A DNA stretch of 64,000 nt from an uncultured Actinomycetota bacterium (lineage in GTDB: Bacteria; Actinomycetota; Actinomycetes; Propionibacteriales; Nocardioidaceae). Shown here piece after piece: positions 2,843-59,021 of this stretch (the stretch's first letter is position 1; each line of letters starts with the position of its first letter). The DNA is taken from contig CAVQXF010000009.1 of the NCBI GenBank assembly GCA_963717855.1, positions 371,426 to 435,425 on the forward strand, given 5' to 3'. A program made the translations under genes and the position numbers. The notes beneath the pieces were generated by a model. The model worked only from the letters and a program-made list of their open reading frames with translations. It ran no database searches and was not told the origin of the DNA.

Positions 2843-3856
2843 CTAGGCGTCCGTCCCGGCGCCCGAGCGGCTTCTGTTGACGATCGTCGCGGCGATCGTG
2901 TTGATGACGAGGGTGATGAGGAAGAGGACGAAGCCGGCCGCGAGCAGCGCGGAGAGCTGGCTCGAGCTGGCGTCACCGAAGCGGCCCGCGATCAGCGCGG
3001 AGACGGTGTTGCCGCCGATCTCGAGGATCCGTGGCTTCACCTCGAAGGACGGCGAGAGGATGAGCAGCACGGCGATGGTCTCGCCGAGCGCCCGACCGAG
3101 GCCGAGCATCGCGCCGCCGATGATGCCGCCGCGGCCGAACGGGATCACGACCGAGCGGACCATGCCCCAGCGGGTGGCGCCGAGCGCGAGCGCGGCCTCC
3201 TTCTCGCCCTGCGGGGTCTGGGAGAACACCTGCCGCATCACGGCGCACGCCATCGGCAGCACCATCATCGCGACCGCGATGCCGGCCACGAACATGCTGA
3301 AGCTGTAGCGCGAGAGCATCGGGACGGCGGCGTTCGGATCGGCGTCCTTGACCTGGAAGAAGGGGATGAAGCCGAGGTTGCGGTCCAGCCACATCGCCAG
3401 GCCGGCCGCGTGCTCCATGATCAGGTAGGAGCCCCACAGGCCCCAGATGATCGAGGGCACCGCGGCCATCAGGTCGATGAGGGAGACCAGGGTGGCTCGG
3501 ATCCCCGCCGGCGCGTACTCACTGATGTAGAGCGCGGTGATCAGCGCCAGCGGGAAGGCGATGGACATCGCGATCAGGGCGACCAGAACGGTCCCGCTGA
3601 GCACGGCGGCGATCCCGAGGACGTCGGCCTCCGGCTGCCACGCCGACTCGGTGAAGAAGCTCCACCCGTAGTGCCGCAAGGTCGGCAGCGCCTGCCAGCC
3701 CAGGAAGATCCCGACGCCACCGGTGATGACGAGGACCACCGATCCGACCACGCGGATCGAGAACACGAAGACCTTGTCCGCACCGGTGGCCTTGCGCGAG
3801 ATGGCGCGAGGGGTGGCCTCGGCGGCAGACGCGTCCTGGAGCGGGAGGGTCGTCAC
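2843..3856 (-). CDS. pstC: phosphate ABC transporter permease PstC
   Basis: Motifs AAVPSIIWGLWG, KEAALALGATRW, LGRALGETIAV; probable GTG start at 3856. Confidence 0.92.
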   Translation of the reverse strand: MTTLPLQDASAAEATPRAISRKATGADKVFVFSIRVVGSVVLVITGGVGIFLGWQALPTLRHYGWSFFTESAWQPEADVLGIAAVLSGTVLVALIAMSIAFPLALITALYISEYAPAGIRATLVSLIDLMAAVPSIIWGLWGSYLIMEHAAGLAMWLDRNLGFIPFFQVKDADPNAAVPMLSRYSFSMFVAGIAVAMMVLPMACAVMRQVFSQTPQGEKEAALALGATRWGMVRSVVIPFGRGGIIGGAMLGLGRALGETIAVLLILSPSFEVKPRILEIGGNTVSALIAGRFGDASSSQLSALLAAGFVLFLITLVINTIAATIVNRSRSGAGTDA

Positions 3857-3917
3857 CTGGTTCTTTCTGGCGAAGCGCTCGGTCGAGCGCGCGGGCAAAC
3901 GCCAGAAGTGTCAGGAG

Positions 3918-4073: not shown

Positions 4074-4095
4074 GTTCAACGTCCGTTCAGCAGCT
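4074..4095 (+). promoter_or_regulatory. putative PHO box facing the divergent hypothetical-MFS-TolB-like genes
   Basis: GTTCAACGTCC GTTCAGCAGCT; GTTCA at 4074 and 4085, exactly 11 bp apart. Confidence 0.55.
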
Positions 4096-43013: not shown

Positions 43014-43895
43014 TCAGCCGAAGCGGCCGTTCACGTAGTCGGAGGTGCGCTGGTCCTGGGGGTTCTCGAAGATCGCCTCGGTCGAGCCGTGCTCGACGAT
43101 CACGCCCGGCGTGCCGTGCGCTGCGAGGAAGAACGCGCACTGGTCGGAGACCCGCTGCGCCTGCTGCATGTTGTGGGTCACGATCACGATCGTCACGTCC
43201 GCGGCGATCTCCGTGATGGTCTCCTCGACCACCCGGGTGGAGGTCGGGTCGAGCGCTGAACAGGGCTCGTCCATCAGCAGCACCCGCGGACGGACCGCCA
43301 AGGACCGGGCGATGCACAACCGCTGCTGCTGGCCGCCCGACAGCGCAGACCCGGGCTGCTTGAGCCGGTCGCGGACCTCACTCCAGAGACCGGCGCGGGT
43401 GAGGGAGTCCTCGACCAGGCCGTCGCGCTCGGACTTGGGGATCTTCACACCGGTCAGGTGCAGGCCCGCCAGCACGTTGTCGCGGATCGACATCGCCGGG
43501 AACGGGTTGGGCTTCTGGAAGACCATCCCGATCGCCTTGCGCGCATCGGTCAGCCGACGCTCGGCCGCATAGATGTCCTGGCCGTCGAGCCGCACCTCGC
43601 CGGCGAGCGCTGCGCTCGGCACCAGCTCGTGCATCCGGTTCAGGATGCGCAGGAAGGTCGACTTGCCGCAGCCCGACGGACCGATCAGGGCAGTCACCTT
43701 GCCGGCGGGCATGTCGATGCTCACGCGGTCCAGCACCTTGCGCTTGCCGAACCAGGCCGAGACCCGCTCCGCCTCCAGACCCGCCGCCGTCGACGGTCGA
43801 ACGACCGGGATCGTCGTGGTCTCGTCGGACACCGCTGCGGCGACCGCCGGCAGCACCTCGGTCATCTCACTCATCGCACCCTGCACCCCTGTCAC
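43014..43895 (-). CDS. pstB: phosphate ABC transporter ATPase PstB
   Basis: GPSGCGKST, MVFQKPNPFP, LSGGQQQRLCIAR, LLMDEPCSALDP, VTHNMQQA, DYVNGRFG. Confidence 0.95.
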   Translation of the reverse strand: MTGVQGAMSEMTEVLPAVAAAVSDETTTIPVVRPSTAAGLEAERVSAWFGKRKVLDRVSIDMPAGKVTALIGPSGCGKSTFLRILNRMHELVPSAALAGEVRLDGQDIYAAERRLTDARKAIGMVFQKPNPFPAMSIRDNVLAGLHLTGVKIPKSERDGLVEDSLTRAGLWSEVRDRLKQPGSALSGGQQQRLCIARSLAVRPRVLLMDEPCSALDPTSTRVVEETITEIAADVTIVIVTHNMQQAQRVSDQCAFFLAAHGTPGVIVEHGSTEAIFENPQDQRTSDYVNGRFG

Positions 43896-43978: not shown

Positions 43979-45206
43979 TCACTTGGCCTTGACCTTGAGC
44001 TTGACGGCCTTCGAGGTCGCCCCCGTGTAGTGCGCATCGCCCGCGTAGACGACGGTGGCCGTCCAGGTGCCCTTGGCCAGCTTGGGCAGCTTGACCTTCG
44101 CGCTGCCCGACCTGATCGTCAGGTTCACCTTCTTCGTCACCCGGCCCTTCTTGAGGACCACCTGGCCCTTGCCACCGGCCTTGGCCAGACCGCTGGCGGT
44201 CGGGACCGTGACGGTGGCAGTGCCGCCCTTCCTGGCGGTCGGCACCTTGGTCACCTTGAGGGCCGGCCTGCCCGACACCGCCTTGGCGACGGCGAAGGTC
44301 TTCGCAGCCGACTGCGACGGGCTGAAGGCCTTGGCGACACCGGCGTAGACGACCTTCAGGGCCCGGCTCACCCGGCTGGAGCGCGACCTTCGGGACCGTG
44401 AGCGTCGCCGTGCCCGTCGACGTCAGCGTCGCCGTGCTCAGCGTCGTCGACCCCGTCACCAGTCGCACGCTGCCCGACGGCTTGGCGGTGCCGGAGGCGG
44501 CCTTCACCGTCGCCCTCACCGTGGCGGCCGTGCCGTAGGTGATCTTCGCCGGCCAGGTCACCGTCACCGACGTGGCGACCGGAGTCGGGTCCGGCGGCAC
44601 CTCGTCACCCAGGATCGGCGCGGTGGTGGTCGTCCAGGTGGAGCCGGAGACCTTGACGTACGCCGCGGCGTACGCGTTGCTCACCCCGGCGGTCGCCGAG
44701 CTGGTGCGCAGCCGCAGCTCGTAGACGCCGGCGAAGCTCGCTCCGGCCTCGTTGTTGGGCAGTGCGGCCACGACGTCGGCCAGGGTGTATCCATCGGCCG
44801 TCGTCGCGACGTACGGCTTGCCCGTCAGCGCCGCGGGGGCGCTCACAGCCCCGGCGCCGCTGAACCTGTCCGTACCCGTCACCTGGACGCCGGGCCAGGC
44901 GCCCGGCGCGGTGCTCGACTGCGGCAGGTGGACGAAGAGGGAGGCGTACGCGTCCCCCGCCCGGACCGCGTCCCCGGCTGCGGCGAAGGCCGCGATCGGG
45001 GTCGTCGTGCTTCCGGAGGTGATCTCCGTGCCAGCGGCGTTGTAGAGCTTCAGGGGGACGGTGGTCTTGTCGTGGTCGGCCACCGTGGCGTTGCCGCCGG
45101 TGTACCAGTCGTCGGCGCCTGCGCCGACGGCGATGCCGCCGACCGTGGTCACCGCGAGGGCAAGGCCCACCGCGGCGACCCACGTCTTCTTCACTGGGAT
45201 CCTCAT
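43979..45206 (-). CDS. secreted protein: unknown N-terminal domain plus Ig-like (Big_3-type) domains with K-rich C-terminus (one frameshift near 44371)
   Basis: Signal peptide MRIPVKKTWVAAVGLAL; Ig-like VTYG..ATV..PSGSVRL..TLTSTGTATLTV and VVYAGDAHY. Confidence 0.75.
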
Positions 45207-45256: not shown

Positions 45257-45865
45257 TCATGGGACGAGTGCGGACTGAGCATCGGCGCAGGAGGCGGTGC
45301 CGCCCCGGACGAGCTCCCAGTCGTCACCGTCGACCCGGAGGTCGGCCGTGTCGTAGGGCTCGTCCGAGAGGGTGCCCGCCGCTGGGGTGCCGAGGTAGAG
45401 CCGCAGCTGCACGTAGCCGTCGTAGTCCGCCGGGAAGGCGGTGACGAAGTCACCGATCGACCAGGCGTTCTCCTCGACCAGCGCCGCCGGACGCTTCGGG
45501 TCTGCGAACTCGCTGGCCGCCGTGATGGCAGTGCCGCTGAACTCGCTGGTCGCCACACCCTCGCGCGGTTGGTACGCGTAGAGGGTGGCGACCGCCCCGG
45601 TCGGCTCCTGGTTCGACGGCAGTGCCGTCTCCCCCAGCGCGACGTCGGCGAACGGCTGGTCGTCGACCTTGCCCCCGGTGACGGCCTTGCCGTCAGCCGA
45701 GCACAGGGTGATCGAGCCGGCCGAGCGCGCGTCGTCGTACGGCGCCGTGGCGTCCTCGCTGGTGACCCGCCAGAAGACGAGCACGGCCGCGACCACGACG
45801 ACGACGCCCACGACAGCCAGCACGGCTGGCCGTCGGGATCGGGTGCGGGTGGTGGTCGTGGTCAT
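45257..45865 (-). CDS. hypothetical membrane-anchored exported protein
   Basis: N-terminal TM; its domain is paralogous to the N-terminal domain of 43979-45206. Confidence 0.75.
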   Translation of the reverse strand: MTTTTTRTRSRRPAVLAVVGVVVVVAAVLVFWRVTSEDATAPYDDARSAGSITLCSADGKAVTGGKVDDQPFADVALGETALPSNQEPTGAVATLYAYQPREGVATSEFSGTAITAASEFADPKRPAALVEENAWSIGDFVTAFPADYDGYVQLRLYLGTPAAGTLSDEPYDTADLRVDGDDWELVRGGTASCADAQSALVP

Positions 45866-45899: not shown

Positions 45900-47202
45900 T
45901 CAGTCCAGCGCGATCTCGGCGTTGTCCGTGCCGAACACGTGGTAGCTGGGCGTGACACCGGCAGCGATCAGCAGCGCCTCACCGGCCGGGGTGCGCACGA
46001 ACGGCTCGGGACCGTCCGGGTTGTAGAACAGCGCCTGCACCCAGTTCAGGGTGCTGCCCGGCTGCCACGGCGTGGTGCTCGTCAGGTCGCTCTCGCGCAC
46101 GATCGCGTTGTAGGCGAAGTTGCCGCCGTACGGCGCCGTGCTCTGCGCGACGTCGGTGTTGCTGTCACCGTCGAGGAGCTTGACACCCGCAGCGCTGGCC
46201 GGCGTGCGGTGGTTGGTCTCGGTGTTGTAGTTGTTGGTCTTCAGGCCGTCCGAGGTCGTCGTGTAGTAGCCGGTGTTCAGCGTCCGGTAGCGACCGCGCG
46301 GGAACGGCACGATGGCGTTCTTCTTCAGCGCGTCGGTGGCGAGGCCGGTGATCGCCGTCGGGTCGTTCTGCTGCACCCCGATGCTGTTGGGGTTCGCGCG
46401 CAGGTAGGCCGCATCGACGGTGACGCTGGGGTTCTGCTTCTTGACGTTGGCGAGGAAGGTGTTCCACATGCCGGCGTCGGTCGGAAGCAGCAGCGGGATG
46501 ATCGTGTCGTCCGGGGCCGGTCCGGTGTAGCCCGGGAGGTCGCCCCACTTCTTGTAGTCGCCGTGGTAGATCTTCAGGATCTGCTCGGCGGTGATCGTGG
46601 CCGGCGCGTTCGTGTCGGTCGCGGTGGCGATCAGCTGGCGGTCGGTCGCGATCTGCACGCGGTAGAGGTTCGTGCCGAGCTTGGACTTCGCCAGCGTCTG
46701 GTTGTCCGCGTTCAGCGGGTCGGGGCTGCGGCCGACGTCGATCCAGCCCTGGTCGTCGTTGATGATGGCGTCGCGGCCACCCCCGCCGCCGCCGGAGGGG
46801 CGAACGACGAGGTCCTGGCCTGCGCGCAGCGAGATGGTCGGGTTGAGCAGCTTGATGTCGGTCTGCTTGACGTACTTCGTGCCGCTCTCACCGACCGTGC
46901 CGTTGCCGGTGACGGTCGGGAGCAGGCGCGGGTCGGTGAAGGCGCTCCGACCCTGCGCGTCGCCGGAGGAGTCGAAGTTCACGAACCGCCAGCGGTTGCC
47001 GGCCGTGTTGTAGCCCGGGCAGCTGGTGGTAGCCGTCGGCCAGGAAGTTGAAGGAGTTCTGGATGATGTCCGACCCGGTCGAGACGACATCGTTCGGCTG
47101 GGGCGAGAAGTCGGCCTCGGCGGGGTTCAGCGACAGGGCGAGCGCGCTGGCGGTCGTGAGCGCGACGAACGCCGCACCCGCGGTCTTGCGACGGTCAAGC
47201 AT
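45900..47202 (-). CDS. secreted PstS-like (PBP type 2 fold) protein with degenerate ligand site (one frameshift near 47015)
   Basis: Signal peptide ending AEA; TGSDIIQ, VRPSGGGGG, IDVGRSP, ITAEQILKIYHGDYKKWGDL, TIIPLLLPTDAGMW follow the order of PstS-type motifs. Confidence 0.65.
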
Positions 47203-47327: not shown

Positions 47328-48242
47328 TCAGATCAGGCCCGGCAGCAGCCGGGATCCGATGGAGGAGACCAGCCACAGCGAGGCCAGTACGACGGGTCCG
47401 CCGGCGATCCAGGCGGCCGACCGCGACCAGCGCAGCCACGCCCAGACGAAGCCGACGAGCGCCAGCACCAGCAGCTGCAGCGCCAGCGCGAGCAACGCCA
47501 GCGTCGTGGTGTCCGCACCTCCGGACATCAGCGGGACGCCCACGTCCTTGGTCGCGACCGGCCCGGCCGCGACCGCCCCGTCGGTGAGTGTGGCGTCGAC
47601 GTACACCGTCTCAGAGGCCTGGAGGCCACCGAGCCCGCCGCCGCGGGCTGCGGTCTGGAGCGTGAGCCGAGAGCCGTCGGCAGGAGGCGCGGCCGGGATC
47701 GGGTCGCCCTTCGTCCGCACGCTGACCACCTCGTAGACGAACGCACCCTGGCCCGTCGTCACGGTGATCGGCGCACCGAACGGGAGGTCTGCGATCTCGT
47801 CGAACGGGGCCCCGAAGCTCAGGGAGCGCCCGGCGATCACGCTGACGCCGCGCTGGCCCGGCAGCACGCTGCCGAGCACGTGCCCCGGACCGTCCTGGAG
47901 CTGGACCGGTCGGCTGCCCTCGACGACCACGAGGTCGTCGACCCCGGCGCCGGGGATCGACAGCAGCGCGACCGGGCTGCCGGCGGCGATCGGAGCACCG
48001 GTGGGCGCCGTGCCACCGGCGAGCTCGGTGCGGAGCTCCTGGTAGAGCTCGCCCTGGGCGTGGCCCTGCTCCAGCCCGCTGAGCACGAACAGGTAGAGCA
48101 GGAACCAGGTGATCAGCAGCGAGACGCCCATCAGGATCTGCGATGACCCGATCCGGACCGGTTCCCGGTCACCGCTTCCTGGTGGCGGAGAGGCGTCGAC
48201 CGGCCCCTCGTGCAGGACCGTGGGCGCGAGGACGGAGCTCAC
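47328..48242 (-). CDS. sortase-fold (class E-like) protein lacking catalytic residues
   Basis: N-terminal TM; VALLSIP, VVVEG, LQDGPGHVLGSVLPGQRGVSVIAGR, ITVTTGQGAFVYEV, RLTLQTA; two extra C-terminal TMs; GTGA overlap with the upstream gene. Confidence 0.85.
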   Translation of the reverse strand: MSSVLAPTVLHEGPVDASPPPGSGDREPVRIGSSQILMGVSLLITWFLLYLFVLSGLEQGHAQGELYQELRTELAGGTAPTGAPIAAGSPVALLSIPGAGVDDLVVVEGSRPVQLQDGPGHVLGSVLPGQRGVSVIAGRSLSFGAPFDEIADLPFGAPITVTTGQGAFVYEVVSVRTKGDPIPAAPPADGSRLTLQTAARGGGLGGLQASETVYVDATLTDGAVAAGPVATKDVGVPLMSGGADTTTLALLALALQLLVLALVGFVWAWLRWSRSAAWIAGGPVVLASLWLVSSIGSRLLPGLI

Positions 48243-51091
48243 GTCCTCCTCCGACCACGGGAGAGCCTGCGCGCCTTCGGCCCCGTACCGGCGACGGCCG
48301 CCGCGATCGGGTCGTACCACCGCATCAGGACCCCGGCGATCGCGCAGGCCAGGGCGAACATCAGCAGACCGGGCACGCCGACCCGCCCGAACATCGACTC
48401 CTGCCCGGCGGTGAGCACGGTCTGAGCCTCCGTGACCGGCGGCGTCGACGGAACCTTCGGTGCGGCGGCTGCGGACGGGGCCGCGGCCGTAGGCACCGTG
48501 ACCGCGGGGACCACCGGTGCGTTGCCGGGCGTCGACCCGGCCGGGGTGGACCCTGTCGGGCTCGACGGGGTCGACGAGGTCGGCTGCGACGAGGAGGTCG
48601 AGGGCGACGGCTTCGGCGTGCTGAAGTCACAGACGTCGTCGCGCGCCGGAGGCGTCATGTCCAGCGCAGGCACGTCACCGGCCTGCTTGCGCACGGCGGC
48701 CGCGGCCGTGAGCAGGTAGTCCCGCTCGGCCCCCAGGCCGTTCGAAGCGGTGATCGGCAGATAGCCGGGCGGCAGCTGTCCGTTTGCCTTGCCCGGGACC
48801 TGCCCCTGATCGTCGGCGTAGCAGAGCAGCTTGGCGAGCCGCGTGGAGCTCCGCTCGTCCAGGCCGCTGGTCGGCACGACCGCGTACACAGGGAGTGCGC
48901 CGGGGTAGGCACTTCTCCCCGACGGGGTCGCCAGGGCGGCGTAGTCGAGGCTCCAGGTGCCGGCGGACTTGTCGGCCTTCAGCAGCCCGGCCGCTGCCTG
49001 CAGGCCGGCGTCGTCAGGTGCGACGAACGTGCGACCTGCGGTCGTGGAGGTCTGCCCCGTCTCCGGCGCCGCCGTCGTCTGCAGTGCCGCGGTCCGCAGG
49101 TTGTAGCGGCGCGCGGCGGAGAGCGAGACGACGCCGAGGACGAACCGGTAGCCCACGCTCTGACGCCCCTGCTGCTTGAGCGGGAGAGTGGTGGGGTCGT
49201 AGCCGTCGTACCGGCACACGGTGGCGACGGCCGAGTTGGAGAACTGCATGTTGAGCACGACCGAGCTCAGGTTGTTGGGCGGGTTGGCGATGAGCTGCAT
49301 GAACGGCGTCGGGCTGCGGTCGTAGCAGGAGTTCTGGTCCCGGTACCACTGCGGGGCCACGTAGGTGTCGCGCAGCGGCCAGTTGTCGACCGGCAGCTCG
49401 AGACGCTCGTATGACGCGTTGACCTTCATGCCCCACGGGTCGGGCGTGCCGTTGAGCCAGGTCCGGGCTTCGGGGTCGTTGGCGATCCAGGAGGTCAGCG
49501 CCCAGAGCAGGTCGGAGGTGGACGAGAAGACCTGGAGGGCGGCGGCCGCCTCGAGGTTCGAGGTCACCGGAAGGCCCGGGTTGAGTGCCTGGAACTCGGG
49601 GTCCAGTGTGATGTTCATCGGGTTGCCGCCGATGCTGGGGTGGCTGTCTCGCACGACGGGTGCCGCCGGGTAGGACGAGGTGAGCAGCTTGGCCACCAGC
49701 CGTGCGTTGAGGTTCAGGCTCTCGCGCCGCTGCTTGTTGGTGTCGTCGATCGCGAAGGCGATCGCGAAGCCGCCGAAGGCGATCGGCGCCTGCACGACCG
49801 GTCTGGCATACCCACCGGCGACCGGCGCCGAGCTGAAGGCGGCCTTGATCTGCCCGGAGTTGACCAGGATCCGCGCCAACGCGTCGGACTGCTGCACGTG
49901 GGTGAAGGTGAAGAGGCTCTTGGTGGTGCAGAACGTGGGACGCCACGACGCGGTGAGCTCGTTGAGCACCACCGATCCCATCACCTCGAGCGGCGCCTCC
50001 TTGCTGACCGCGTCGCAGACCGCACCCGTGGCTGCGAAGGTCAGCGGGACGGCGATCCGGTTGCGCCAGTTCGACGCCGACCACCACAGGTTGCCGCGCA
50101 CCGCCTGGTCGCTGGTCTGGCTCGACTTGGCCTCCCCGGGCAGGTAGGCGCCGGTGCGCCGGCAGGTGGCGTCAGCCGTGGTCTTCTGCGCCGCGGTCAG
50201 CGGCACTCCGGCCTTCGTGGTCTGCTCGGCGCCCGCAGGCAGCTTGGTGCCCCAGGCGTCGCAGCTGACCCCGACGATCGGCACGGCGACGAGCGAGCAG
50301 GCGACCTCGACGGAGCAGCCGAGGGACGCATTCTCCGCTGCGGTCCAGACGGCGAAGTCGGTCTCACCCTTGCCGTCCGTGCCGGTGATGCCGTACGTCG
50401 TGTTGCTCGGCAGGCCACCGGCCTCCGCGTTGTCGGACTCCGGCGCTGTGGGGGTGCACCCCGCATCGGGGTTGGGCCCCCCGTAGTAGGTCTGGCCCCC
50501 GGCTGCCCGGAAGGGCAGCCAGCGTGCGGTGAGCGGCGCGGCCAGGCCCTCGCACTCCTCCGGGAGCGGGTCCGGGGCTCCGACCACCGCGCCACGGTCC
50601 TCAGCGGACGCGTAGGCGTCGGCGCGCCAGGCCGGGGTGTGGGAGGCCGCGGCCAGGTAGCGCTCGGGGGACGTCTGGGTCCAGCACGTCTCAGGTGAGA
50701 CCTTGACCTGGCCCTTCGGGGCCGCGCCGGCGGTGTCGACCCCCCGGCACTGCAGCAGGACGAACGGGTACTCCTCGTTGCGGCCGTCGGAGGTGTTCGG
50801 GTCGGCCACGACACCGCCTGTGGGGACGGCGCCCTGCCAGGAGACATGGACCTCCTGGCGTCCGCGGAGGTCCACGGTCTGGGAGACGGTGAGCTTGACC
50901 TGGTTGGTGCTGGCCAGCGTCTCGTTGCCGTTCTCGTCGACGAACGTCCGGGTGGCCTTCACGGACTTGGTCACCGAGCCGTCGGTGACCTGCGCCGACG
51001 TCGGGGACGCCGGCAGCAGCACCGCCACCCCTGCGAAGAGGAACGCAGCAGCGAACAGCACGTGGGCGAACTGCTTGCGGCGGCCGCTCAT
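48239..51091 (-). CDS. 950-aa exported, C-terminally anchored protein with Cys-rich N-terminal domain and degenerate PstS-like C-terminal domain
   Basis: Signal peptide; PstS-like APIAFGGFAIAF, LNLNARLVAKLLT, DPEFQALNP, AYPGALPVYAVVP, GQ..GYLPI; P/S/T linker, TM and basic tail. Confidence 0.75.
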   Translation of the reverse strand: MSGRRKQFAHVLFAAAFLFAGVAVLLPASPTSAQVTDGSVTKSVKATRTFVDENGNETLASTNQVKLTVSQTVDLRGRQEVHVSWQGAVPTGGVVADPNTSDGRNEEYPFVLLQCRGVDTAGAAPKGQVKVSPETCWTQTSPERYLAAASHTPAWRADAYASAEDRGAVVGAPDPLPEECEGLAAPLTARWLPFRAAGGQTYYGGPNPDAGCTPTAPESDNAEAGGLPSNTTYGITGTDGKGETDFAVWTAAENASLGCSVEVACSLVAVPIVGVSCDAWGTKLPAGAEQTTKAGVPLTAAQKTTADATCRRTGAYLPGEAKSSQTSDQAVRGNLWWSASNWRNRIAVPLTFAATGAVCDAVSKEAPLEVMGSVVLNELTASWRPTFCTTKSLFTFTHVQQSDALARILVNSGQIKAAFSSAPVAGGYARPVVQAPIAFGGFAIAFAIDDTNKQRRESLNLNARLVAKLLTSSYPAAPVVRDSHPSIGGNPMNITLDPEFQALNPGLPVTSNLEAAAALQVFSSTSDLLWALTSWIANDPEARTWLNGTPDPWGMKVNASYERLELPVDNWPLRDTYVAPQWYRDQNSCYDRSPTPFMQLIANPPNNLSSVVLNMQFSNSAVATVCRYDGYDPTTLPLKQQGRQSVGYRFVLGVVSLSAARRYNLRTAALQTTAAPETGQTSTTAGRTFVAPDDAGLQAAAGLLKADKSAGTWSLDYAALATPSGRSAYPGALPVYAVVPTSGLDERSSTRLAKLLCYADDQGQVPGKANGQLPPGYLPITASNGLGAERDYLLTAAAAVRKQAGDVPALDMTPPARDDVCDFSTPKPSPSTSSSQPTSSTPSSPTGSTPAGSTPGNAPVVPAVTVPTAAAPSAAAAPKVPSTPPVTEAQTVLTAGQESMFGRVGVPGLLMFALACAIAGVLMRWYDPIAAAVAGTGPKARRLSRGRRRT

Positions 51092-52827
51092 CGGCCACCC
51101 CGACGCCGCGCGACGGTCTGACTGACGATCGTCGGCACCACGAGCGTGGCGACGAACAGGCCGACAACGAGAGCCGTCAGCGCTCCCGGCGGGCCGGACG
51201 AGCCGTCGGAGTTCAGGGTCGTCGCGACCACCGGAGCGGCGTCGCCGCCGTCGGTCGTCGTCGTGCCGAGACCGAGGTCGTCGACCGCGGCCGGGTCGCC
51301 ACCCCCCGGCGCTGCGTCCGGCACGCCGTCACCATCGGTGTCGGTGGCGCCGGCGCCCGCTGCGGCCGTCGTGCCCGTGCCCGTGCCCGCGCCAGCGCCG
51401 GCACCCTTGCCCGAGGTACCGTCCCCGCCGGTGTCGCCGCTCGACGTGCCGCCCTGGGAGCTGCCGGCGTCCTGCGGGACCTTGCCGTCGTCGTCCGGGT
51501 TCGCGTTGAAGACGCCGACCCCGTCGGCACACGGGCCCTTGCCCGGGCGGTCGCAGTCGGCCGGGAAGGGCGCGATCTTGGCCAGGTAGTTCTCCCCCGG
51601 CTTGCCGGGGATGAAGGTCGGGTTGTGGCAGTTCTTGACGTCCTTGATGATCGAGGCGTCGAAGTCGACCTTGCTGTCGGCGAGCTTGAGCTTGTTGATC
51701 TGGGTGAAGCCCGCCTGCACCAGATTGACCGGCAGCGGCGAGTAGCCGATCGGTCCGACCTCGGACTGGCCCTCGCAGATCGACTGCTTGAGGAAGTCCA
51801 CGATCGTCTGCCGCTTGGCGGTCGTCATCCGGGAGTCGTTCGCGGCGGTCGGGATGATCGCGTACACGTACGACGACAGCGGGTAGGTGCGCTTGTCCGG
51901 GTTGACGTAGACGTTGTCGAGCTTCTGGGTCAGGTAGTTGGGGTCCTTGGGATCGTTGTTGATCTGGGCCTGGGTGAGTGCGACCGCGACGTTGTACTGC
52001 GTCGGCAGGGTGTAGTAGCCGGCCCGGTTGAGGACCTTGAGCACCGGGAAGTTCGACATCAGCGGGTAGGAGTACTCCTCCATCGCGATCGCGCCGTTGG
52101 ACCCGGCACTCTTGACGTAGTTCATGACCCCGTCGGAGCCCGACTGCGCCTTCTGCGGACCGCGGGTCTCGCCACAGTTGAGGGGGAAGTAGTCGGACGG
52201 CGCGGCCTTGCCGCCGTTGCAGTCGCGCCACAGGCTCGGGTACTGGCTGACCAGCCAGGTCGTGAACTGGTTGGTGATGCCGGCACCGTCCGCGCGCACG
52301 ACCGGGATGATCGGGATCGAGGGCAACGCCTTGTTGTTGTTGTCCTTGGTGATCGCCGGGTCGTTCCAGTTGGTGATCTTGTTGGTGAAGATCTTCGCGA
52401 TCGTCTCGCCCGACAGCCGGATGTTGCGCACCATCTTGCCGCCGACCTCGACGTGGTAGGGGAAGGACGTGCCGCCGGAGACGATGGGCAGGTAGGCGAA
52501 CGAGCGGCCCAGCGGCGAGTCCGTCGCCCCGGTCGTCGGGTCCTTGCCGCGGTACGGCGAGTCCGTGACGCCGAAGTCGGTCGACTTGTTGGCATAGTCC
52601 TTGCGGCCCTGCGCGGCACCGTTGGCGGTGTAGACGACCCGCATGCCCTTGGCGTCGACGTCGGCGACCCACTGGTTGACCGCGTTGGCCGCCCAGGACG
52701 AGCCCGATCCCTGGATCAGGGCGTACGACGGGGCCGCGCTCGCGGCGCCCGGCCCGGCGAGGACCGCGAAGTGCAGCGCGAGGAGCATCGCGACGACCCG
52801 GAGCACCCGGGTCCTGGTGGCGGTCAT
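51088..52827 (-). CDS. pstS: PstS-family binding protein, non-lipoprotein, with C-terminal TM anchor
   Basis: ATG at 52827 overlaps the pstA stop; GSGSSW, DFGVTD, ITNWNDPAI, PVVRADGAGIT, YPLSSYVY, GYSPLP; G/T/A linker, TM and RRRGGR tail. Confidence 0.85.
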   Translation of the reverse strand: MTATRTRVLRVVAMLLALHFAVLAGPGAASAAPSYALIQGSGSSWAANAVNQWVADVDAKGMRVVYTANGAAQGRKDYANKSTDFGVTDSPYRGKDPTTGATDSPLGRSFAYLPIVSGGTSFPYHVEVGGKMVRNIRLSGETIAKIFTNKITNWNDPAITKDNNNKALPSIPIIPVVRADGAGITNQFTTWLVSQYPSLWRDCNGGKAAPSDYFPLNCGETRGPQKAQSGSDGVMNYVKSAGSNGAIAMEEYSYPLMSNFPVLKVLNRAGYYTLPTQYNVAVALTQAQINNDPKDPNYLTQKLDNVYVNPDKRTYPLSSYVYAIIPTAANDSRMTTAKRQTIVDFLKQSICEGQSEVGPIGYSPLPVNLVQAGFTQINKLKLADSKVDFDASIIKDVKNCHNPTFIPGKPGENYLAKIAPFPADCDRPGKGPCADGVGVFNANPDDDGKVPQDAGSSQGGTSSGDTGGDGTSGKGAGAGAGTGTGTTAAAGAGATDTDGDGVPDAAPGGGDPAAVDDLGLGTTTTDGGDAAPVVATTLNSDGSSGPPGALTALVVGLFVATLVVPTIVSQTVARRRGGR

Positions 52828-53960
52828 CGAGACTTCCTTCCGCCGGCGACCAGCCGGGCGATCAAGAACAGGGTCAGCACGAGGACGAGCAGCACCGCGG
52901 CGGCGGCGTACGCCCGCTCCTCCATCTGGGGGCTGCCCGACTGGATCGAGGCATAGATGAAGAGCGGCAGCGAGTTCATCGGATCCTGGGTGGGGTTGGT
53001 GTTGAGGAAGGTCGAGGCACCCGAGGTGAGCAGGACCGGTGCGGTCTCGCCGACGGCGCGGGCGATGCCGAGGATGAGTGCGGTCGCCAGGCCGGGCCGG
53101 GCGGTCGGCAGGACCACCTTCCAGACCGTCTGCCACTTGCCGGCACCCATCGCGTAGGACGCCTCGCGCAGGCCGCCGGGCACGACGCCGAGTACGACGT
53201 AGCTCGCCCGCGCCATGATCGGCAGCGCCATCACGGCCAGCGCCAGCGCGGCCGCCAGACCGCTGGCCGGCATGCCGAACCGGACGATGAAGACCGAGTA
53301 GATGAAGAGCCCGGCCACGATCGAGGGAAGCGCCGTCATGGCCTCGACGACGGTGCGCACCAGCCGGGCACCGCGACCACCGACCTCCGACATGTAGACC
53401 GCGGCCGCCACCCCGAGCGGCATCGCGATCGCGACGGCGATCGCAACCTCGATCAGGGTGCCGACGATGGCGTGCAGGATGCCGCCCTTGGTGAACGGGT
53501 CGCTGGCCCGGACGCCGGACATGTCGTCGGTGAAGAAGTTGAGGTGGACCAGCGCGGGCAGGCCCTTGACCAGGGTCATCAGCACGACGGCGGCCAGCGC
53601 CGTCGCCACCAGGATGGGCGCGGCGATCACGACCGTCGAGACGATCCGGTCGATCACCACCTGCCCGGGCTGGGTCAGCGTCGTGAGGCCGGCGTAGAAC
53701 GCGATGAAGACGAGGTACCACGCCACGACGAAGCCGATCGACCCGTCGAAGGGCAGGATCTGCGTGTACAGCAGCCAGGTGGTCGCGAGCGAGCCGGCCG
53801 CGGCACCGACCAGCGCGAGCACGTCCTCGCGGGTGCGCGCACTGGTCCGGCGCAGGACCTCGGGCGGCGGCGCGTCGACCGGCGCATCCGGGGCCGGGCC
53901 CGCGTCGACCGGTCCGTCGTCGTCCGGCAGGTCGACCGGGCGCTCGAGCGTCTGCGTCAC
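52824..53960 (-). CDS. pstA: phosphate ABC transporter permease PstA
   Basis: GGILHAIVGT, LPSIVAGLF, LREASYAMGA, ARAVGETAP; GTG start overlaps the pstC stop. Confidence 0.92.
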   Translation of the reverse strand: MTQTLERPVDLPDDDGPVDAGPAPDAPVDAPPPEVLRRTSARTREDVLALVGAAAGSLATTWLLYTQILPFDGSIGFVVAWYLVFIAFYAGLTTLTQPGQVVIDRIVSTVVIAAPILVATALAAVVLMTLVKGLPALVHLNFFTDDMSGVRASDPFTKGGILHAIVGTLIEVAIAVAIAMPLGVAAAVYMSEVGGRGARLVRTVVEAMTALPSIVAGLFIYSVFIVRFGMPASGLAAALALAVMALPIMARASYVVLGVVPGGLREASYAMGAGKWQTVWKVVLPTARPGLATALILGIARAVGETAPVLLTSGASTFLNTNPTQDPMNSLPLFIYASIQSGSPQMEERAYAAAAVLLVLVLTLFLIARLVAGGRKSR

Positions 53961-55003
53961 AGCTCGGTCACCTGGCTCCCCCGCGAGCGCGAGACGATGA
54001 CCGCCGCCAGGCTGTTGACGACCAGGGTCATGCAGAAGAGCAGGAACCCTGCGGTGAGGAGCGCCGAGAGCTGCGACGGCGTCGCCTCCTTGAAGGACGA
54101 CGCGATCAGCGAGGAGATGGTCGAGGTCCCCGACTCCAGCACGTACGGCTTGATCTCGAACGCCTGCGAGATGACCAGCACCACCGAGATCGTCTCGCCG
54201 AGCGCGCGGCCCAGGGCGAGCATGCTGCCGCCGATGATGCCGCTGCGGCCGAAGGGCAGCACGACCGTGCGTACGACGGCCCAGCGCGTCGCCCCCAGTG
54301 CGAGCGCGGCCTCCTTCTCGCCCACCGGCGCCTGGGAGAAGACCTCGCGCATCACCGAGGTCGCCATCGGGAAGATCATCATCGTCACGGCGATCGCAGC
54401 GATGAACGCGGACCCGGCGTACGACGGGTAGCCGGGCGCCTGGTTCCAGATCGGGTAGTCGACGTCGGTGCGCACGTGGAACAACGGGAACCAGCCGAAG
54501 TACTTGCTCAGCCAGTGCGCGACCTCGGTGGCGTGCGGCTGCATCACGAAGAGCACCCACAGCCCGAAGACGATGCCGGGGACGGCCGCCATCAGGTCGA
54601 CGACCCGGATCAGCGTGCCGCGCAGGCCCGGCGGCGCCCAGTCGGTGATGAAGAGAGCGGTGAGGATCGACAGCGGTACGGCGATGACCAGGGCGATGGC
54701 CGCCACCTGGATGGTGCCGACGACGACGGCCGAGATGCCGATGACGTCCTGGCTCGGCAGCCAGCGGAACTCGGTGAAGAACGACAGTCCGTAGTGGTCG
54801 AGCGTCGGCACCGACTGGATGCCCAGGAAGACGCCGATGCACAAGACGATGATGAGGACGAGCATCCCGACGCCGCGCACGCTGTGGACGAAGAACCTGT
54901 CCTGGAACGAGTGCCGTGCGACCACGCGTCGCGGGACGTCCTCGACCTCCCCCGGCGGTCCTGCCGGTCCCGGCGCGGGTGGCGCCAGCACATCACCTGA
55001 CAT
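53957..55003 (-). CDS. pstC: phosphate ABC transporter permease PstC
   Basis: AAVPGIVFGLW, KEAALALGATRW, LGRALGETISV. Confidence 0.92.
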   Translation of the reverse strand: MSGDVLAPPAPGPAGPPGEVEDVPRRVVARHSFQDRFFVHSVRGVGMLVLIIVLCIGVFLGIQSVPTLDHYGLSFFTEFRWLPSQDVIGISAVVVGTIQVAAIALVIAVPLSILTALFITDWAPPGLRGTLIRVVDLMAAVPGIVFGLWVLFVMQPHATEVAHWLSKYFGWFPLFHVRTDVDYPIWNQAPGYPSYAGSAFIAAIAVTMMIFPMATSVMREVFSQAPVGEKEAALALGATRWAVVRTVVLPFGRSGIIGGSMLALGRALGETISVVLVISQAFEIKPYVLESGTSTISSLIASSFKEATPSQLSALLTAGFLLFCMTLVVNSLAAVIVSRSRGSQVTEL

Positions 55004-55167: not shown

Positions 55168-55776
55168 CTAGACGTGTACGCCGTGGTCGGCCAGCAGCTC
55201 GACGAGCCTCGGCAGGCCGGACTCGAGGTCCCACTGCTCGGCTCGCAGTCCGGCGGCCCGGGCCCCCGCCACGTTGCCGGCGAGGTCATCGACGAAGAGC
55301 ACCGACGCGGGGTCGCCGCCGATGCGAGCGGCAGCTCGTCGGAAGTAGGCCACCTCCGGCTTCGCCGCGCCCAGGTCGCAGGAGTAGCAGCTGACGTCGA
55401 AGAGGTCGTCGTAGCCCAGCGTCTCGCGCATGTACGCCGCGCGCTGGCGGTGCTGGTTGGTGCCCAGGTGCACGCCGTACCCGGCGGCCCGCGCCCGGCG
55501 GACCAGGTCGACCATCGCGGGAACCGTCCGGATCGAGAGCCACAGCTCGGCGTAGAGCTCATCGGGATCGACCTCGATCCCGTGCCGGTCGAGGATCCCG
55601 CGCAGGGCCAGCTCCATGTCGCCGTCACCACGGAGCGCCGGCTGCTCCGCGGCCCAGAGCTGGTCCACCAGCTCGGCGGACCTCGCACCGAGGTAGGGCC
55701 CGGCTCGGCCCACCTGTCCGCCGCCCGGGATCGTCTGCAGGACGCCGTCGGCGTCGAGCAGCAGGTGTCGGATCAC
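55168..55776 (-). CDS. HAD-superfamily phosphatase
   Basis: LLDADGVL, GTNQ, AAKPE, LFVDD, GARAAGL. Confidence 0.9.
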   Translation of the reverse strand: MIRHLLLDADGVLQTIPGGGQVGRAGPYLGARSAELVDQLWAAEQPALRGDGDMELALRGILDRHGIEVDPDELYAELWLSIRTVPAMVDLVRRARAAGYGVHLGTNQHRQRAAYMRETLGYDDLFDVSCYSCDLGAAKPEVAYFRRAAARIGGDPASVLFVDDLAGNVAGARAAGLRAEQWDLESGLPRLVELLADHGVHV

Positions 55777-55786
55777 GGTGCCGGGG

Positions 55787-56575
55787 TCAGCCGGCCGAGG
55801 TGACGCCGTGCCGGCGCACGAAGTCCACGATCCGCTCGGCCAGCTCGGGGCGGCACACGATCAGGTCGGGGAGGTAGACGTCGTCCTGGTTGTACTCGAG
55901 CGGCGTGCCGTCGATGCGCGAGGTGAACAGGCCGGCCGCCCGGGCCACCGCGACCGGGGCGGCCGAGTCCCACTCGTACTGGCCGCCGGCGTGGACGTAG
56001 GCGTCGGTCAGGTCGCGCACCACGGAGATGACCTTGACCCCGGCGGAGCCCATCGGCACCAGCTCGGCGTCGATCTCCTCGGCCAGCGCGTGCACGAACT
56101 CCGGCGGTCGACTGCGCGAGACCGCGATCCGCGGCCGCTCCGACGTGCTCGGAGGTACGACGGCCGGCCGGCCGGTGTCGAAGGTCTCGCCCAGGGCGGG
56201 CAGCGCGACGGCACCGGCGACCAGGTCGCCCTGCTGCCACAGTGCGACGTGGACGGCCCAGTCGTCGCGCGGCACCTCGGAGAACTCGCGCGTGCCGTCG
56301 AGCGGGTCGACGATCCAGACGCGTGCGTTGTCGAGCCGGGCCTTGTCGTCCTTGCCCTCCTCGGACAGCACGGCGTCGCCCGGCCGGTGCTCGGCCAGCA
56401 GGTCCATCAGCAGCAGGTGGGCCGCCCGGTCGCCGGCGTCCTTCAGCTCGCGGCCCTCGAGCCCCTCGCCCCGCACCTGGAGGAGTCGCTCGCCCGCGAC
56501 GGTGGCCAGCCAGGAGGCGAGCACGTGGTCGTCGGTCGAGGCAGCGGCGGGCGGGGTTCCGGGTTCGAAGCTCAC
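55787..56575 (-). CDS. cysQ: 3'(2'),5'-bisphosphate nucleotidase CysQ
   Basis: VLSEEG, VWIVDPLDGTREF, VSRSR, MGSAGVK, YEWDSAAP. Confidence 0.92.
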   Translation of the reverse strand: MSFEPGTPPAAASTDDHVLASWLATVAGERLLQVRGEGLEGRELKDAGDRAAHLLLMDLLAEHRPGDAVLSEEGKDDKARLDNARVWIVDPLDGTREFSEVPRDDWAVHVALWQQGDLVAGAVALPALGETFDTGRPAVVPPSTSERPRIAVSRSRPPEFVHALAEEIDAELVPMGSAGVKVISVVRDLTDAYVHAGGQYEWDSAAPVAVARAAGLFTSRIDGTPLEYNQDDVYLPDLIVCRPELAERIVDFVRRHGVTSAG

Positions 56576-56615
56576 GCGAGCCACCCTAACGAGCGACCGT
56601 CCGTAGTGTCGGAGC

Positions 56616-59021
56616 GTGTCCCTCACCCTCACCGAGGCGCGCGTCCGCGCGGCCCAGCTCTCCGACGTGTCGTACGACCTCGCACTCGAGCTGGTCGACC
56701 GGGGCTCCCCCACCTTCGGCTCGCGGACGACGGTCCGGTTCCGGTCGGCGGGTGAGGCGACGTTCCTCGAGCTCGCAGCAGCCCGGGAGCTGACGGTCCG
56801 GGTCAACGGCGCGACCGCGGACCCGGCGTACGACGGCGCCCGGATCAGCCTCACCGGCCTCCGCACCGACGACGTCAACGAGGTCGTCGTCGACGCCCGG
56901 CTCCCCTACGTCACCGACGGCGACGGCATGCACCGGACCGTCGACCCCGCCGACGGCGAGACCTACGTGGCCGCCTACCTGGGCATGGACGTGGCACAGA
57001 AGGTCTTCGCCTGCTTCGACCAGTACGACCTCAAGGCGCCGATCGTCGCCTCCGTGGCCGCCGACCCGGCCTGGACGGTACTGGCCAACGGCCGGACCGT
57101 CGAGGAGCGCGACGGCCACTGGCGGTTCGCCGCCACCCCGCCGATCCCTCCCTCGCTGGTCGTGGTCGCTGCGGGCCCCTGGGCCTCACGGCGCTGGGAG
57201 CACGCCGGCCTGCCGTTCGGCTGGCACGCCCGGGCATCCCTGGCCGGGGAGCTCGAGCGGGACTTCGAGGAGCTGCGGCGCATCACCGAGGCCTGCTACG
57301 ACCACTTCGCGGTGCTGTTCGACGAGCCCTACGCCTTCGACTCCTACGACCAGGTCTTCGTGCCGGGCCTCAACTGGGGCGCGCAGGAGATGCCGGGCTG
57401 CGTCACCTACCGCGACGAGATGCTCCCCCGCGGCGCCGTCCCTGGAGACGTCCGAGACCTCCGGGCCTCGGTGATCGCGCACGAGATGTCGCACATGTGG
57501 TTCGGCGACCTGATGACGATGACGTGGTGGGAGGACACCTGGCTGCAGGAGTCGTTCGCCGACTACATGGGCTACCGCGTCGCCGGTGACGCCGCGGGCT
57601 TCCCCGGGGCGCTCATCGGGCACGAGGTCGGCCGCAAGCCGTCGGCGTACGACGCGGACGAGCGGCGCTCCACGCACCCCATCGCGCCGGCTCCCGAGGA
57701 CATCCCCGACGTCGACACCGCGGCGACGATCTTCGACGCCATCTCCTACAGCAAGGGCAACTCGGTGCTCCGCCAGCTGGCGACCTGGCTCGGCGACGAG
57801 GTGTTCCTGCGCGGGGTCAACCTGCACCTCAACCGGCACCGCTTCGGCAACGCCACCCTCGCCGACTTCGTGGACGCCCTCGACGAGGCCTCTGACCGCG
57901 ACGTCCGCACCTGGATCGACCTCTGGCTCCGCAGCACCGGCTTCGACACCCTGCGGGTCGAGCGCGACGGGGAGGTCCCGGTGCTGCACCGGGACGGCAC
58001 CCGCCCGCACCGGGTCCGGGTCACGGCGTACGACGACGCCTGGACCGCCGTCGGCTCCGAGCTCGTCGACGTCGCCGACGAGCCGGTCCGTCTGACGGCG
58101 TACGCCGGCCGCGTCGTCGTGCCCAACTCGCACGGCGAGACCTTCGCCCGGATCGTGCTCGACGACAGCTCATGGGCCGCTGTCGGGGTCGGGCTGTGCC
58201 GCATCGAGGACGACCTCGTGCGAGCGGTGCTCTGGACGATGCTCCTCGACCGGGTCCAGACGCGGGCCCTGGACGCCGCAGACCTCGTCGATCTCGTCGA
58301 GCGGCACCTGCCCGGCGAGCGCAGCGCGGTGATGGTGACCGCAGTCCTGAACCGCACACTGACCCAGGTGCTGCCGTCCAGGGCTCCGGCCGCCACGGCA
58401 CCCGACCTGCTCGATCACCTCGCGGCGGCCTGTGTCGCCGGGCTGATGCATGCGACGTCGCCCGAGCTGGCGCTGGCCTTCGCCGGCGGGGTCGCCGCCG
58501 GCTCGCACGACATCGAGATGCTCCGGGGTTGGCTGGCGGTCGGCGCCGTGGGCGACCTCGCGCTGCCGCCGACCCTGCGCTGGCGGGTGATCCAGCGACT
58601 CACCGAGCTCGGGTCGCTGGACGCGGCGGCCATCGAACGGGAGCGGACCCGCGAGCCCGGCACCGAGGCCGAGGCGGGAGCGGCCACCGCTCTGGCGGCC
58701 CGCCCGACCAGGGAGGCCAAGGAGGCGGCCTGGTCGGTGGCGGCCGATCCGGCCGTCGACAACCGGGTCTTCGGCGCCGTGATGCGCGGCCTGTGGTCCT
58801 CGGAACACCCCGACCTGGTCGCGCCGTACGTCGAGCGCTACCTGCGCGAGTCCCCGATCTGGGCCGCACGCGGGCAGGCCTTCGCGCTCGTCGTAGGCCG
58901 CTCGCAGCCGCGGCTGGCCCTGACCGGGGACCAGGTGCGCCTTCTCGACGAGGCGCTCGCGGGCGACCTGCCGACCGTGCTGCGCCGGCAGTGGGAGGAC
59001 TGGCGAGACGACCTGGGGTGA
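56616..59021 (+). CDS. pepN: aminopeptidase N (M1 family)
   Basis: GAQEMPG (GAMEN-like), IAHEMSHMWFG..WLQES zinc motif, SYSKG. Confidence 0.92.
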   Translation: MSLTLTEARVRAAQLSDVSYDLALELVDRGSPTFGSRTTVRFRSAGEATFLELAAARELTVRVNGATADPAYDGARISLTGLRTDDVNEVVVDARLPYVTDGDGMHRTVDPADGETYVAAYLGMDVAQKVFACFDQYDLKAPIVASVAADPAWTVLANGRTVEERDGHWRFAATPPIPPSLVVVAAGPWASRRWEHAGLPFGWHARASLAGELERDFEELRRITEACYDHFAVLFDEPYAFDSYDQVFVPGLNWGAQEMPGCVTYRDEMLPRGAVPGDVRDLRASVIAHEMSHMWFGDLMTMTWWEDTWLQESFADYMGYRVAGDAAGFPGALIGHEVGRKPSAYDADERRSTHPIAPAPEDIPDVDTAATIFDAISYSKGNSVLRQLATWLGDEVFLRGVNLHLNRHRFGNATLADFVDALDEASDRDVRTWIDLWLRSTGFDTLRVERDGEVPVLHRDGTRPHRVRVTAYDDAWTAVGSELVDVADEPVRLTAYAGRVVVPNSHGETFARIVLDDSSWAAVGVGLCRIEDDLVRAVLWTMLLDRVQTRALDAADLVDLVERHLPGERSAVMVTAVLNRTLTQVLPSRAPAATAPDLLDHLAAACVAGLMHATSPELALAFAGGVAAGSHDIEMLRGWLAVGAVGDLALPPTLRWRVIQRLTELGSLDAAAIERERTREPGTEAEAGAATALAARPTREAKEAAWSVAADPAVDNRVFGAVMRGLWSSEHPDLVAPYVERYLRESPIWAARGQAFALVVGRSQPRLALTGDQVRLLDEALAGDLPTVLRRQWEDWRDDLG

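Follow-up and report, generated by a model that had tools for sequence, protein, structure and literature searches.

A gene within a pst-type operon of an uncultured member of the Nocardioidaceae encodes a protein with the predicted fold of a sortase and none of the three sortase catalytic residues. Sequence comparisons show that the loss of the triad is family-wide and support the view that this pseudo-sortase is a conserved pseudoenzyme. We propose that it acts as a membrane-retained, non-catalytic scaffold that holds tail-anchored PstS-like proteins beside PstCAB, a reading to which we give a probability of about 0.45. The window referred to below is the whole stretch of 64,000 nucleotides that was analysed.

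A predicted sortase fold without its catalytic residues

The ORF at 47328-48242 of the minus strand is intact and codes for 304 residues. The predicted order of its elements is a cytoplasmic N terminus, TM1 and a stalk helix, the barrel, a linker, TM2, TM3 and a terminal LPxxx-COOH sequence, with the following features.

47328..48242 (-): pseudo-sortase gene, 304 aa, from the PF04203 match and the predicted model
48075..48143 (-): TM1, about residues 34-56, from the model and covariation
47577..47990 (-): sortase beta-barrel, about residues 85-222, from structure comparison
47826..47828 (-): Arg139 (CGC, in IAGRSL) at the catalytic His site; Arg or Lys in 147 of 150 representatives
47649..47651 (-): Ala198 (GCA, in TLQTA) in place of the catalytic Cys; 0 of 150 representatives have Cys there
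47607..47609 (-): Thr212 in the catalytic Arg column, from alignment with active relatives
47430..47510 (-): TM2 (residues 245-271), which in the inferred topology would bring the chain back to the cytoplasm, from the model
47331..47423 (-): TM3 and RLLPGLI-COOH, a probable fused SafA-like element, from covariation, a conserved Pro and profiles

Alignment to PF04203 and superposition on a class E enzyme, two of the checks put forward in the initial annotation, both agreed with a sortase assignment. The protein scored 41.9 bits against the Pfam cut-off of 26.6, and its AlphaFold model, built from 150 sequences with a pLDDT of 94.7, matched 4d70 (Z 18.7, rmsd 2.6 Å, 151 residues aligned) and SrtE1 5cuw (Z 15.2, rmsd 2.1 Å, 129 residues), with Z scores of 15.2-15.4 for 5cuw, 5go5 and 5go6. 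The aligned ranges stop near residue 224; the model has one N-terminal helix and two C-terminal ones (245-271 and 274-299). By its predicted barrel fold, the protein is a member of the sortase superfamily (PF04203). Database labels on family members read “class E sortase” or “sortase A”.

Sortase transpeptidation requires His, Cys and Arg, according to an excerpt of PMC11231552. In active sortases the His follows strand 4, the Cys lies in TLxTC and the Arg opens strand 8. The initial annotation had placed an Arg codon at the His site and an Ala codon at the Cys site, and had noted that no Arg stands at the usual position; the two codons are CGC and GCA as described, and the third residue is Thr212, as against Arg in 120 of 120 active relatives. 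It had further held that the changes are substitutions in an intact frame. This is borne out by the ORF and by the alignment of AGHRxxxGxPF in solved class E sortases with AGRSxxxGAPF in the pseudo-sortase, where the equal spacing to the downstream GAPF shows that His was replaced by Arg and not deleted.

The same losses run through the family. Among the query and the 120 closest of 374 matches, the His site is occupied by Arg (108), Lys (12) or His (1), and the Cys site by Ala (82), Ser (33), Thr (5) or Met (1). The best 150 representatives of 50%-identity clusters have Arg (136), Lys (11), His (2) or Thr (1) at the former, and Ala (86), Ser (43), Gly (7), Val (5), Thr (5), Leu (2), Glu (1) or a gap (1) at the latter. 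Residues 85-220 contain no Cys in any of 47 genome loci, and 6 of the best 150 representatives have a Cys elsewhere in the barrel. Where His does occur at its site (1/121, 2/150 and 1/47 in the three sets), the Cys is lacking all the same. Arg occupies its catalytic column in 10 of 150 dead representatives versus 120 of 120 active relatives with three helices. The family comprises 519 clusters at 50% identity with E<=1e-30, a count that may include some active relatives.

The dN/dS ratio of the gene is 0.09-0.39 (NG86, 10 pairs), similar to those of pstS and the gene for the 950-aa protein, which indicates that it is under purifying selection. The pseudoenzyme reading of the initial annotation is thus supported by the family-wide loss of His and Cys, a dN/dS well under 1 and linkage to pst genes, which it had predicted, in 47 of 47 loci; the role that it suggested, a scaffold or peptide-binding module, is a putative one. 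Strain-specific decay or a base-call error, for which the one-base insertions in two neighbouring genes of this assembly might speak, is refuted by the family data: the identical substitutions occur in hundreds of relatives and in a paralogue of the same genome, dN/dS is far below 1, and the neighbouring insertions do not lie at catalytic codons. It is also highly improbable that the protein is still an enzyme that catalyses a new reaction through a Ser at the Cys site or the upstream His of GPGH. Ser is found at the Cys site in 43 of 150 representatives and in basal members, and His121 in 144 of 150, but the site is Ala here and in most relatives (86/150), and no barrel Cys is present in the 47 loci. 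We rejected His121 as an alternative catalyst; it is conserved in 120 of 120 active sortases, and being equally conserved there, it is a residue of the fold.

Active three-helix relatives and the C-terminal module

The two additional C-terminal helices noted in the initial annotation are predicted, but they are not particular to the dead protein. A phylum search found four sortases that have His, Cys and Arg together with the same two helices, and the 120 best homologues of those four have both the triad and the helices in 120 of 120 cases. The extra helices were therefore inherited and did not come from the repurposing. The four active three-helix sortases that we mapped (L086-L089, in genomes G032, G105, G293 and G182) adjoin cytochrome c maturation genes, not pst. 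In L089 ccmA, B, C, E and F were identified, and a septum-formation-type protein comes after two of the four sortases.

A tree of 37 rows was computed with the catalytic columns and the C-terminal helices excluded; near-duplicate active sequences, most of the derived members, the long-branch class E sortase of the source genome and L070 were left out. The 14 dead rows formed a single clade (98/95), outside the separate clade of Actinomycetia class E sortases (96/95). A weakly supported branch (65/16) set the dead and the active three-helix rows together apart from the rest. In basal dead members the His site is Arg and the Cys site Ser, and two of them (L058 and L059) still have the catalytic Arg. 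Genome G105 has an active three-helix copy as well as a dead one, the latter about 10 kb from a pst-type cluster. We infer that the dead family originated by duplication and stepwise loss of the triad.

TM3 (residues 274-299), which follows TM2, is predicted to be a single N-in helix with an outward C terminus, the topology being deduced. Excerpts of PMC9282373 describe SafA as an N-in helix of 52 residues that is encoded after the housekeeping sortases of actinobacteria, that binds the sortase TM and keeps the signal peptidase LepB2 from cutting, and that is fused to class E sortases in Bifidobacterium. TM3 together with LPxxx-COOH is probably a fused, SafA-like antagonist of signal peptidase. 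Of 317 full-length dead members, 311 have Pro fourth from the C terminus, as do 120 of 120 active three-helix relatives, and W46-S293, which links TM1 to TM3, is among the top five covarying pairs. SafA-like ORFs were recovered in 25 of 29 class E loci. An LPxxx-COOH end was found in 5 of 30 free SafA-like ORFs from the phylum search versus 2 of 675 control proteins; three of these five ORFs directly follow a single-helix sortase and two lie about 1.2 kb away. With a profile of the five SafA-like sequences, C-terminal matches were obtained for 28 of the 120 active three-helix sortases, for 1 of 138 dead members and for 0 of 675 controls. In favour of a fused element, too, a search for free SafA in four genomes that encode an active three-helix sortase found no significant match in any of them (best E 0.8).

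Profile comparison was less favourable. With hhalign, the SafA profile matched the dead C terminus no better than it matched membrane-helix controls or shuffles, a TM1 control scored almost as high as the active C terminus, and tests with profiles of 5 and of 25 SafA sequences were both non-significant. The exoplasmic FPW motif is absent from both dead and active fused forms, which have only the second LP motif in common with SafA, and no Pfam family matches SafA or the pseudo-sortase C terminus. Two Actinomycetia SafA sequences that were scanned likewise had no Pfam family. In many Actinomycetota families that do not belong to the class of the source genome, sortases are followed by small, divergent SafA-like genes (L138-L157).

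The conserved tail could also be read as a plug. The LPxxx-COOH end would then fill the old groove of its own barrel as a substrate mimic, making the protein a rigid membrane subunit of the ABC complex. The Pro conserved in 311 of 317 members would fit, as would basal tails that read LPSTL or LPATL, a tail that is non-helical with a pLDDT of 94 in the deep-alignment prediction versus helical with 64 in another, and weak covariation of pairs 209-302, 205-303 and 187-304. Those pairs rank 52 or lower, however, and are perhaps phylogenetic, and the same tail ends 120 of 120 active enzymes as well as free SafA-like peptides, so that it predates the loss of catalysis. We regard self-plugging as quite improbable; a fused SafA-like element accounts for the strictly conserved tail without it.

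The pst-type operon and its relatives

The genes of the window's operon are ordered pstC-pstA-pstS-(950 aa)-pseudo-sortase-(secreted PBP)-(202 aa)-(Ig protein)-pstB. Together with a second operon of the same type, its features are as follows.

53957..55003 (-): pstC-type permease, Arg/Glu phosphate-site motif GRALGET retained
52824..53933 (-): pstA-type permease, ARAVGET retained
51088..52821 (-): PstS-like protein with a non-lipoprotein signal peptide, low-complexity stalk, VVATTL and C-terminal TM
48239..51091 (-): 950-aa surface protein, stalk with invariant Thr894, C-terminal TM
45900..47202 (-): secreted PBP-fold protein, frame split
45257..45865 (-): 202-aa protein, N-terminally anchored, paralogue of the N-terminal domain of the next gene's product
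43979..45206 (-): secreted protein with C-terminal Big_3_5 Ig domains, frame split
43014..43895 (-): pstB-type ATPase, last gene of the operon
1-3898 (-): second operon of the same type, G000:C9:365288-375324 (L091)
4074-4091: perfect PHO-type repeat upstream of the second operon

The stop of the 950-aa gene overlaps the start of the pseudo-sortase gene, and a gene of the 950-aa type also adjoins the pseudo-sortase gene in several rearranged clusters. Relative to locus L002, one surplus base lies near 47016 in the PBP gene and one near 44370 in the Ig gene; both are probably long-read assembly errors. Upstream of the operon, on the same strand, 55168-56878 carries genes for a HAD hydrolase and an inositol-monophosphatase/CysQ-like protein.

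The PstS-like and the 950-aa proteins share a common build: a signal peptide, a folded domain, a low-complexity stalk, a short motif, a membrane helix and a basic end. These tail-anchored partners resemble sortase substrates in build but have no cleavable motif. In the 950-aa protein, Thr894 does not vary in 35 of 35 rows, down to about 25% identity, and the PstS-like tail has a [PAT][TV][TE]L motif and Pro563, the Pro being present in 41 of 41. The 950-aa protein has no Pfam match and shows weak similarity to PstS near its C-terminal half. In NCBIfam, PstC and PstA scored above their cut-offs, PstB reached 337 bits versus 343, and PstS fell below its cut-off.

In PstS of the window's operon type, Ala, Ala and Ile or Val replace the Ser, Ser and Thr of solved PstS in 19 of 19 rows (Ile in the window), at three positions that we take to be phosphate contacts in E. 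coli PstS. All three are intact in 4 of 4 rows of the paralogous operon type. PstC and PstA keep the Arg220/Arg237 phosphate site and its Glu; an excerpt of PMC12976172 states that this Arg/Glu site of the permease sets phosphate specificity in E. coli.

The PHO box is a GTTCA-N6-GTTCA repeat, as given in an excerpt of PMC6988585. The 2.63 Mb assembly contains four perfect repeats (10 of 10), among them one upstream of an ordinary pstS and one upstream of the second, paralogous operon, where another repeat (9 of 10) lies nearer the operon's start and is conserved in related loci. Upstream of the window's operon the best score was 7 of 10. Five of six other promoters of the second type score 9 of 10 at one position; 1 of 17 upstream regions of the window's type reaches 9, inside a called gene start. 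The first scan was run without L001, L004 and L016. Most of the distant loci have no PHO box beside pstC either, but their operons may begin further upstream. Given the changed PstS residues and the missing PHO box, the window's operon is probably no longer under PhoP control, and its ligand may be a different one. In the second operon the PstS phosphate site is intact, and one gene is a PBP-Ig fusion; its dead sortase, encoded just beyond the window, is 42% identical to the window's copy.

A pst-type cluster, defined as pstB within about 5 kb or an upstream pstC-pstA-pstS-950 block, surrounds the dead sortase in all 47 fetched loci as far as the contigs reach, across Nocardioidaceae, Streptomyces and Acidimicrobiia. 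Accessory genes vary between clusters. Five divergent members, examined over 19 kb each, keep PstS-like partners in a rearranged gene order, with pstC/pstA inside the stretch in four and on another contig in the fifth. A full-length member was found in 10 of 300 evenly sampled Actinomycetota genomes (>=156 bits, the next score being 117); the sample includes nine unpublished genomes, none among the ten holders. This is a lower bound, since the divergent member in G105 scored far lower. Within the family of the source genome, 20 of 150 genomes hold a full-length member and eight of these hold more than one. Besides the second such cluster, the source genome, 60% complete, contains an ordinary pst operon and encodes an active class E sortase (G000:C3:214073-214771, L048). 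L048 has Phe at the class E Tyr position, and no SafA-like gene follows it. A metagenome scan with a basal member returned one short, distant locus, and a search of sequencing runs listed no RNA holder.

Other arrangements were seen in single genomes or groups. A pst operon of G182 (L096, G182:C12:20000-39900) encodes a PstB that falls between those of the two types (62%), and no dead sortase lies within 20 kb of it; it is a possible sister system. Long open frames in G311, G392 and G349 were checked as possible pseudo-sortase fusions and none proved to be one; the G213 frame looks like a frameshift read-through, and a search of longer proteins gave one match, a frameshift-like record. P0179 is a singleton case of fusion to the 950-aa protein. 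An unannotated secreted two-Cys domain without a Pfam match recurs in Acidimicrobiia clusters (L021:6809-8520, L024:8688-9758, L035:18657-20849 and others) in TM-anchored, LAXTG/LPXTG-tailed, FN3-linked and WxL-like forms, the last so called from its presumed resemblance to WxL. A gene resembling WxL-interacting proteins (PF06030, 26.3 bits, just below the cut-off; L084:1259-3478) lies beside a basal dead sortase, and a WxL-like gene adjoins the same sortase.

Proposed function and comparison with known systems

In the scaffold model, a three-helix active sortase would have duplicated, a state of which G105 may retain a trace in its active and dead copies. The copy in the pst cluster would have lost His and Cys first, to Arg and Ser, and the catalytic Arg afterwards. 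TM3 and LPxxx-COOH would pack against TM1 as a SafA-like block of release by signal peptidase, keeping the barrel membrane-bound. The clients would be the 950-aa protein or PstS, which have the build of sortase substrates without a cleavable motif; the remodelled barrel, its helices or both would bind their stalk and anchor and keep them within reach of the permease. In favour of the model are the loss of the triad throughout the family, purifying selection, the constant pst-type neighbourhood, the single dead clade, active relatives of the same three-helix build, and the conserved motifs that directly precede the membrane anchor in each PstS-like partner.

The pocket is a point against the model. 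An excerpt of PMC5148588 names Tyr229 and Ala249, the small Ala of subsite S3, as pocket residues. The position of class E Tyr229, in the beta3/beta4 loop, is Val122 here and mostly Arg (73) or Leu (41) in the best 150 representatives, and that of Ala249 is Tyr, Met, Phe or Leu in 126 of 150. Binding in the classical groove is doubtful, because the pocket is remodelled and the Arg that binds the signal backbone is gone. Further points against the model are the weak support for grouping dead with active three-helix sortases, the single occurrence of a fusion to the 950-aa protein and the G182 operon, near which no dead sortase lies. A complex prediction of pseudo-sortase residues 28-304 with the 950-aa tail (880-930) gave a score of 0.06 and a mark of 0.32, controls not having been folded, and so speaks neither for nor against the model.

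The new Arg at the old His site might instead serve anion binding. Arg139, together with Arg71 and Arg176, would form a pocket for phosphate, lipid-linked pyrophosphate or a peptidoglycan carboxylate. The protein would then anchor the complex to the wall or pass ligand on, without binding peptides. The His site has indeed not drifted, with Arg or Lys in 147 of 150 representatives and Arg in basal members; the dead family, unlike the active three-helix family, conserves R71, R139, G144, R176 and D216, and the permeases retain their phosphate-site arginines. On the other hand, the covariation of R176 with D216 points to a structural salt bridge, and Arg139 is retained even where the operon's PstS has lost its phosphate contacts. 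We consider this reading rather unlikely.

A guard or holdase that shields tail-anchored partners in trans from signal peptidase, a rhomboid or the housekeeping sortase, without organising a transporter, is unlikely as well. The probable SafA-like module, the Thr motif that precedes the partners' membrane tail and the separate active class E sortase of the genome would suit such a role, and LPXTG/LAXTG-type proteins are encoded in or beside 15 of 47 clusters. Yet the module also occurs in active enzymes and most simply acts on the protein's own TM1, and an LPXTG/LAXTG protein is found in none of 20 Nocardioidaceae-type loci and not in the window's operon.

The scaffold model can be extended, although we hold the extension to be doubtful: a sortase-SafA fusion would have become a non-catalytic receptor for uncleavable stalks that resemble sorting signals, building a multi-receptor complex on a Pst-type ABC core, and the Nocardioidaceae duplicate would have left phosphate control for another ligand or for signalling.

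Sortases are described as enzymes, and a full-text literature search found neither a conserved, catalytically dead branch nor such an operon in any paper searched; survey supplements could list such proteins. The family is annotated as active sortase, which misleads genome-based inference, and it offers a traceable path from enzyme to pseudoenzyme with living intermediates. SafA-type membrane retention would reach a new setting. The Pst-type system with tail-anchored receptors that the family marks is unstudied; it occurs in cultured Nocardioides and Streptomyces strains, Nocardioides lianchengensis among them, where it is directly testable.

Reportedly, the role of SipA in pilus assembly is non-catalytic, and the protein thus offers a precedent for an envelope-enzyme fold used as an assembly factor, although its fold and pathway differ from those of the pseudo-sortase. 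S. pyogenes SipA is signal-peptidase-like and is needed for pilus assembly, according to an excerpt of PMC4049620.

Among solved structures, the best sequence matches of the pseudo-sortase are class E sortases (SrtE1 5cuw; S. avermitilis 5go5/5go6; SrtF 5uus). Like those of S. coelicolor, S. avermitilis and C. diphtheriae, it has the barrel, an N-terminal TM with a stalk helix and the EGT...GxGH...PG motifs. Unlike them, it lacks His, Cys, Arg and an equivalent of Tyr229 and has two extra helices, and it scores 62.7 bits against the cut-off of 160 for NF033747 (class E sortase). With SafA of A. oris, fused in Bifidobacterium, its C-terminal module shares a single N-in helix, an outward Pro-containing end and a place on the C-terminal side of a class E-like sortase; its terminal LPxxx-COOH is common to a subset of free SafA-like ORFs. 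It differs in that it contains no FPW or PGP, is fused via an extra helix, sits on a dead enzyme and has a profile similarity that is not significant by itself. Compared with the PstSCAB importer of E. coli (9k3s/9k3x; excerpt of PMC12976172), the window's operon retains the phosphate-site Arg and Glu of PstC and PstA, whereas its PstS is a non-lipoprotein, tail-anchored on a stalk, and the operon adds the 950-aa surface protein, a secreted PBP, Ig-domain proteins and the pseudo-sortase.
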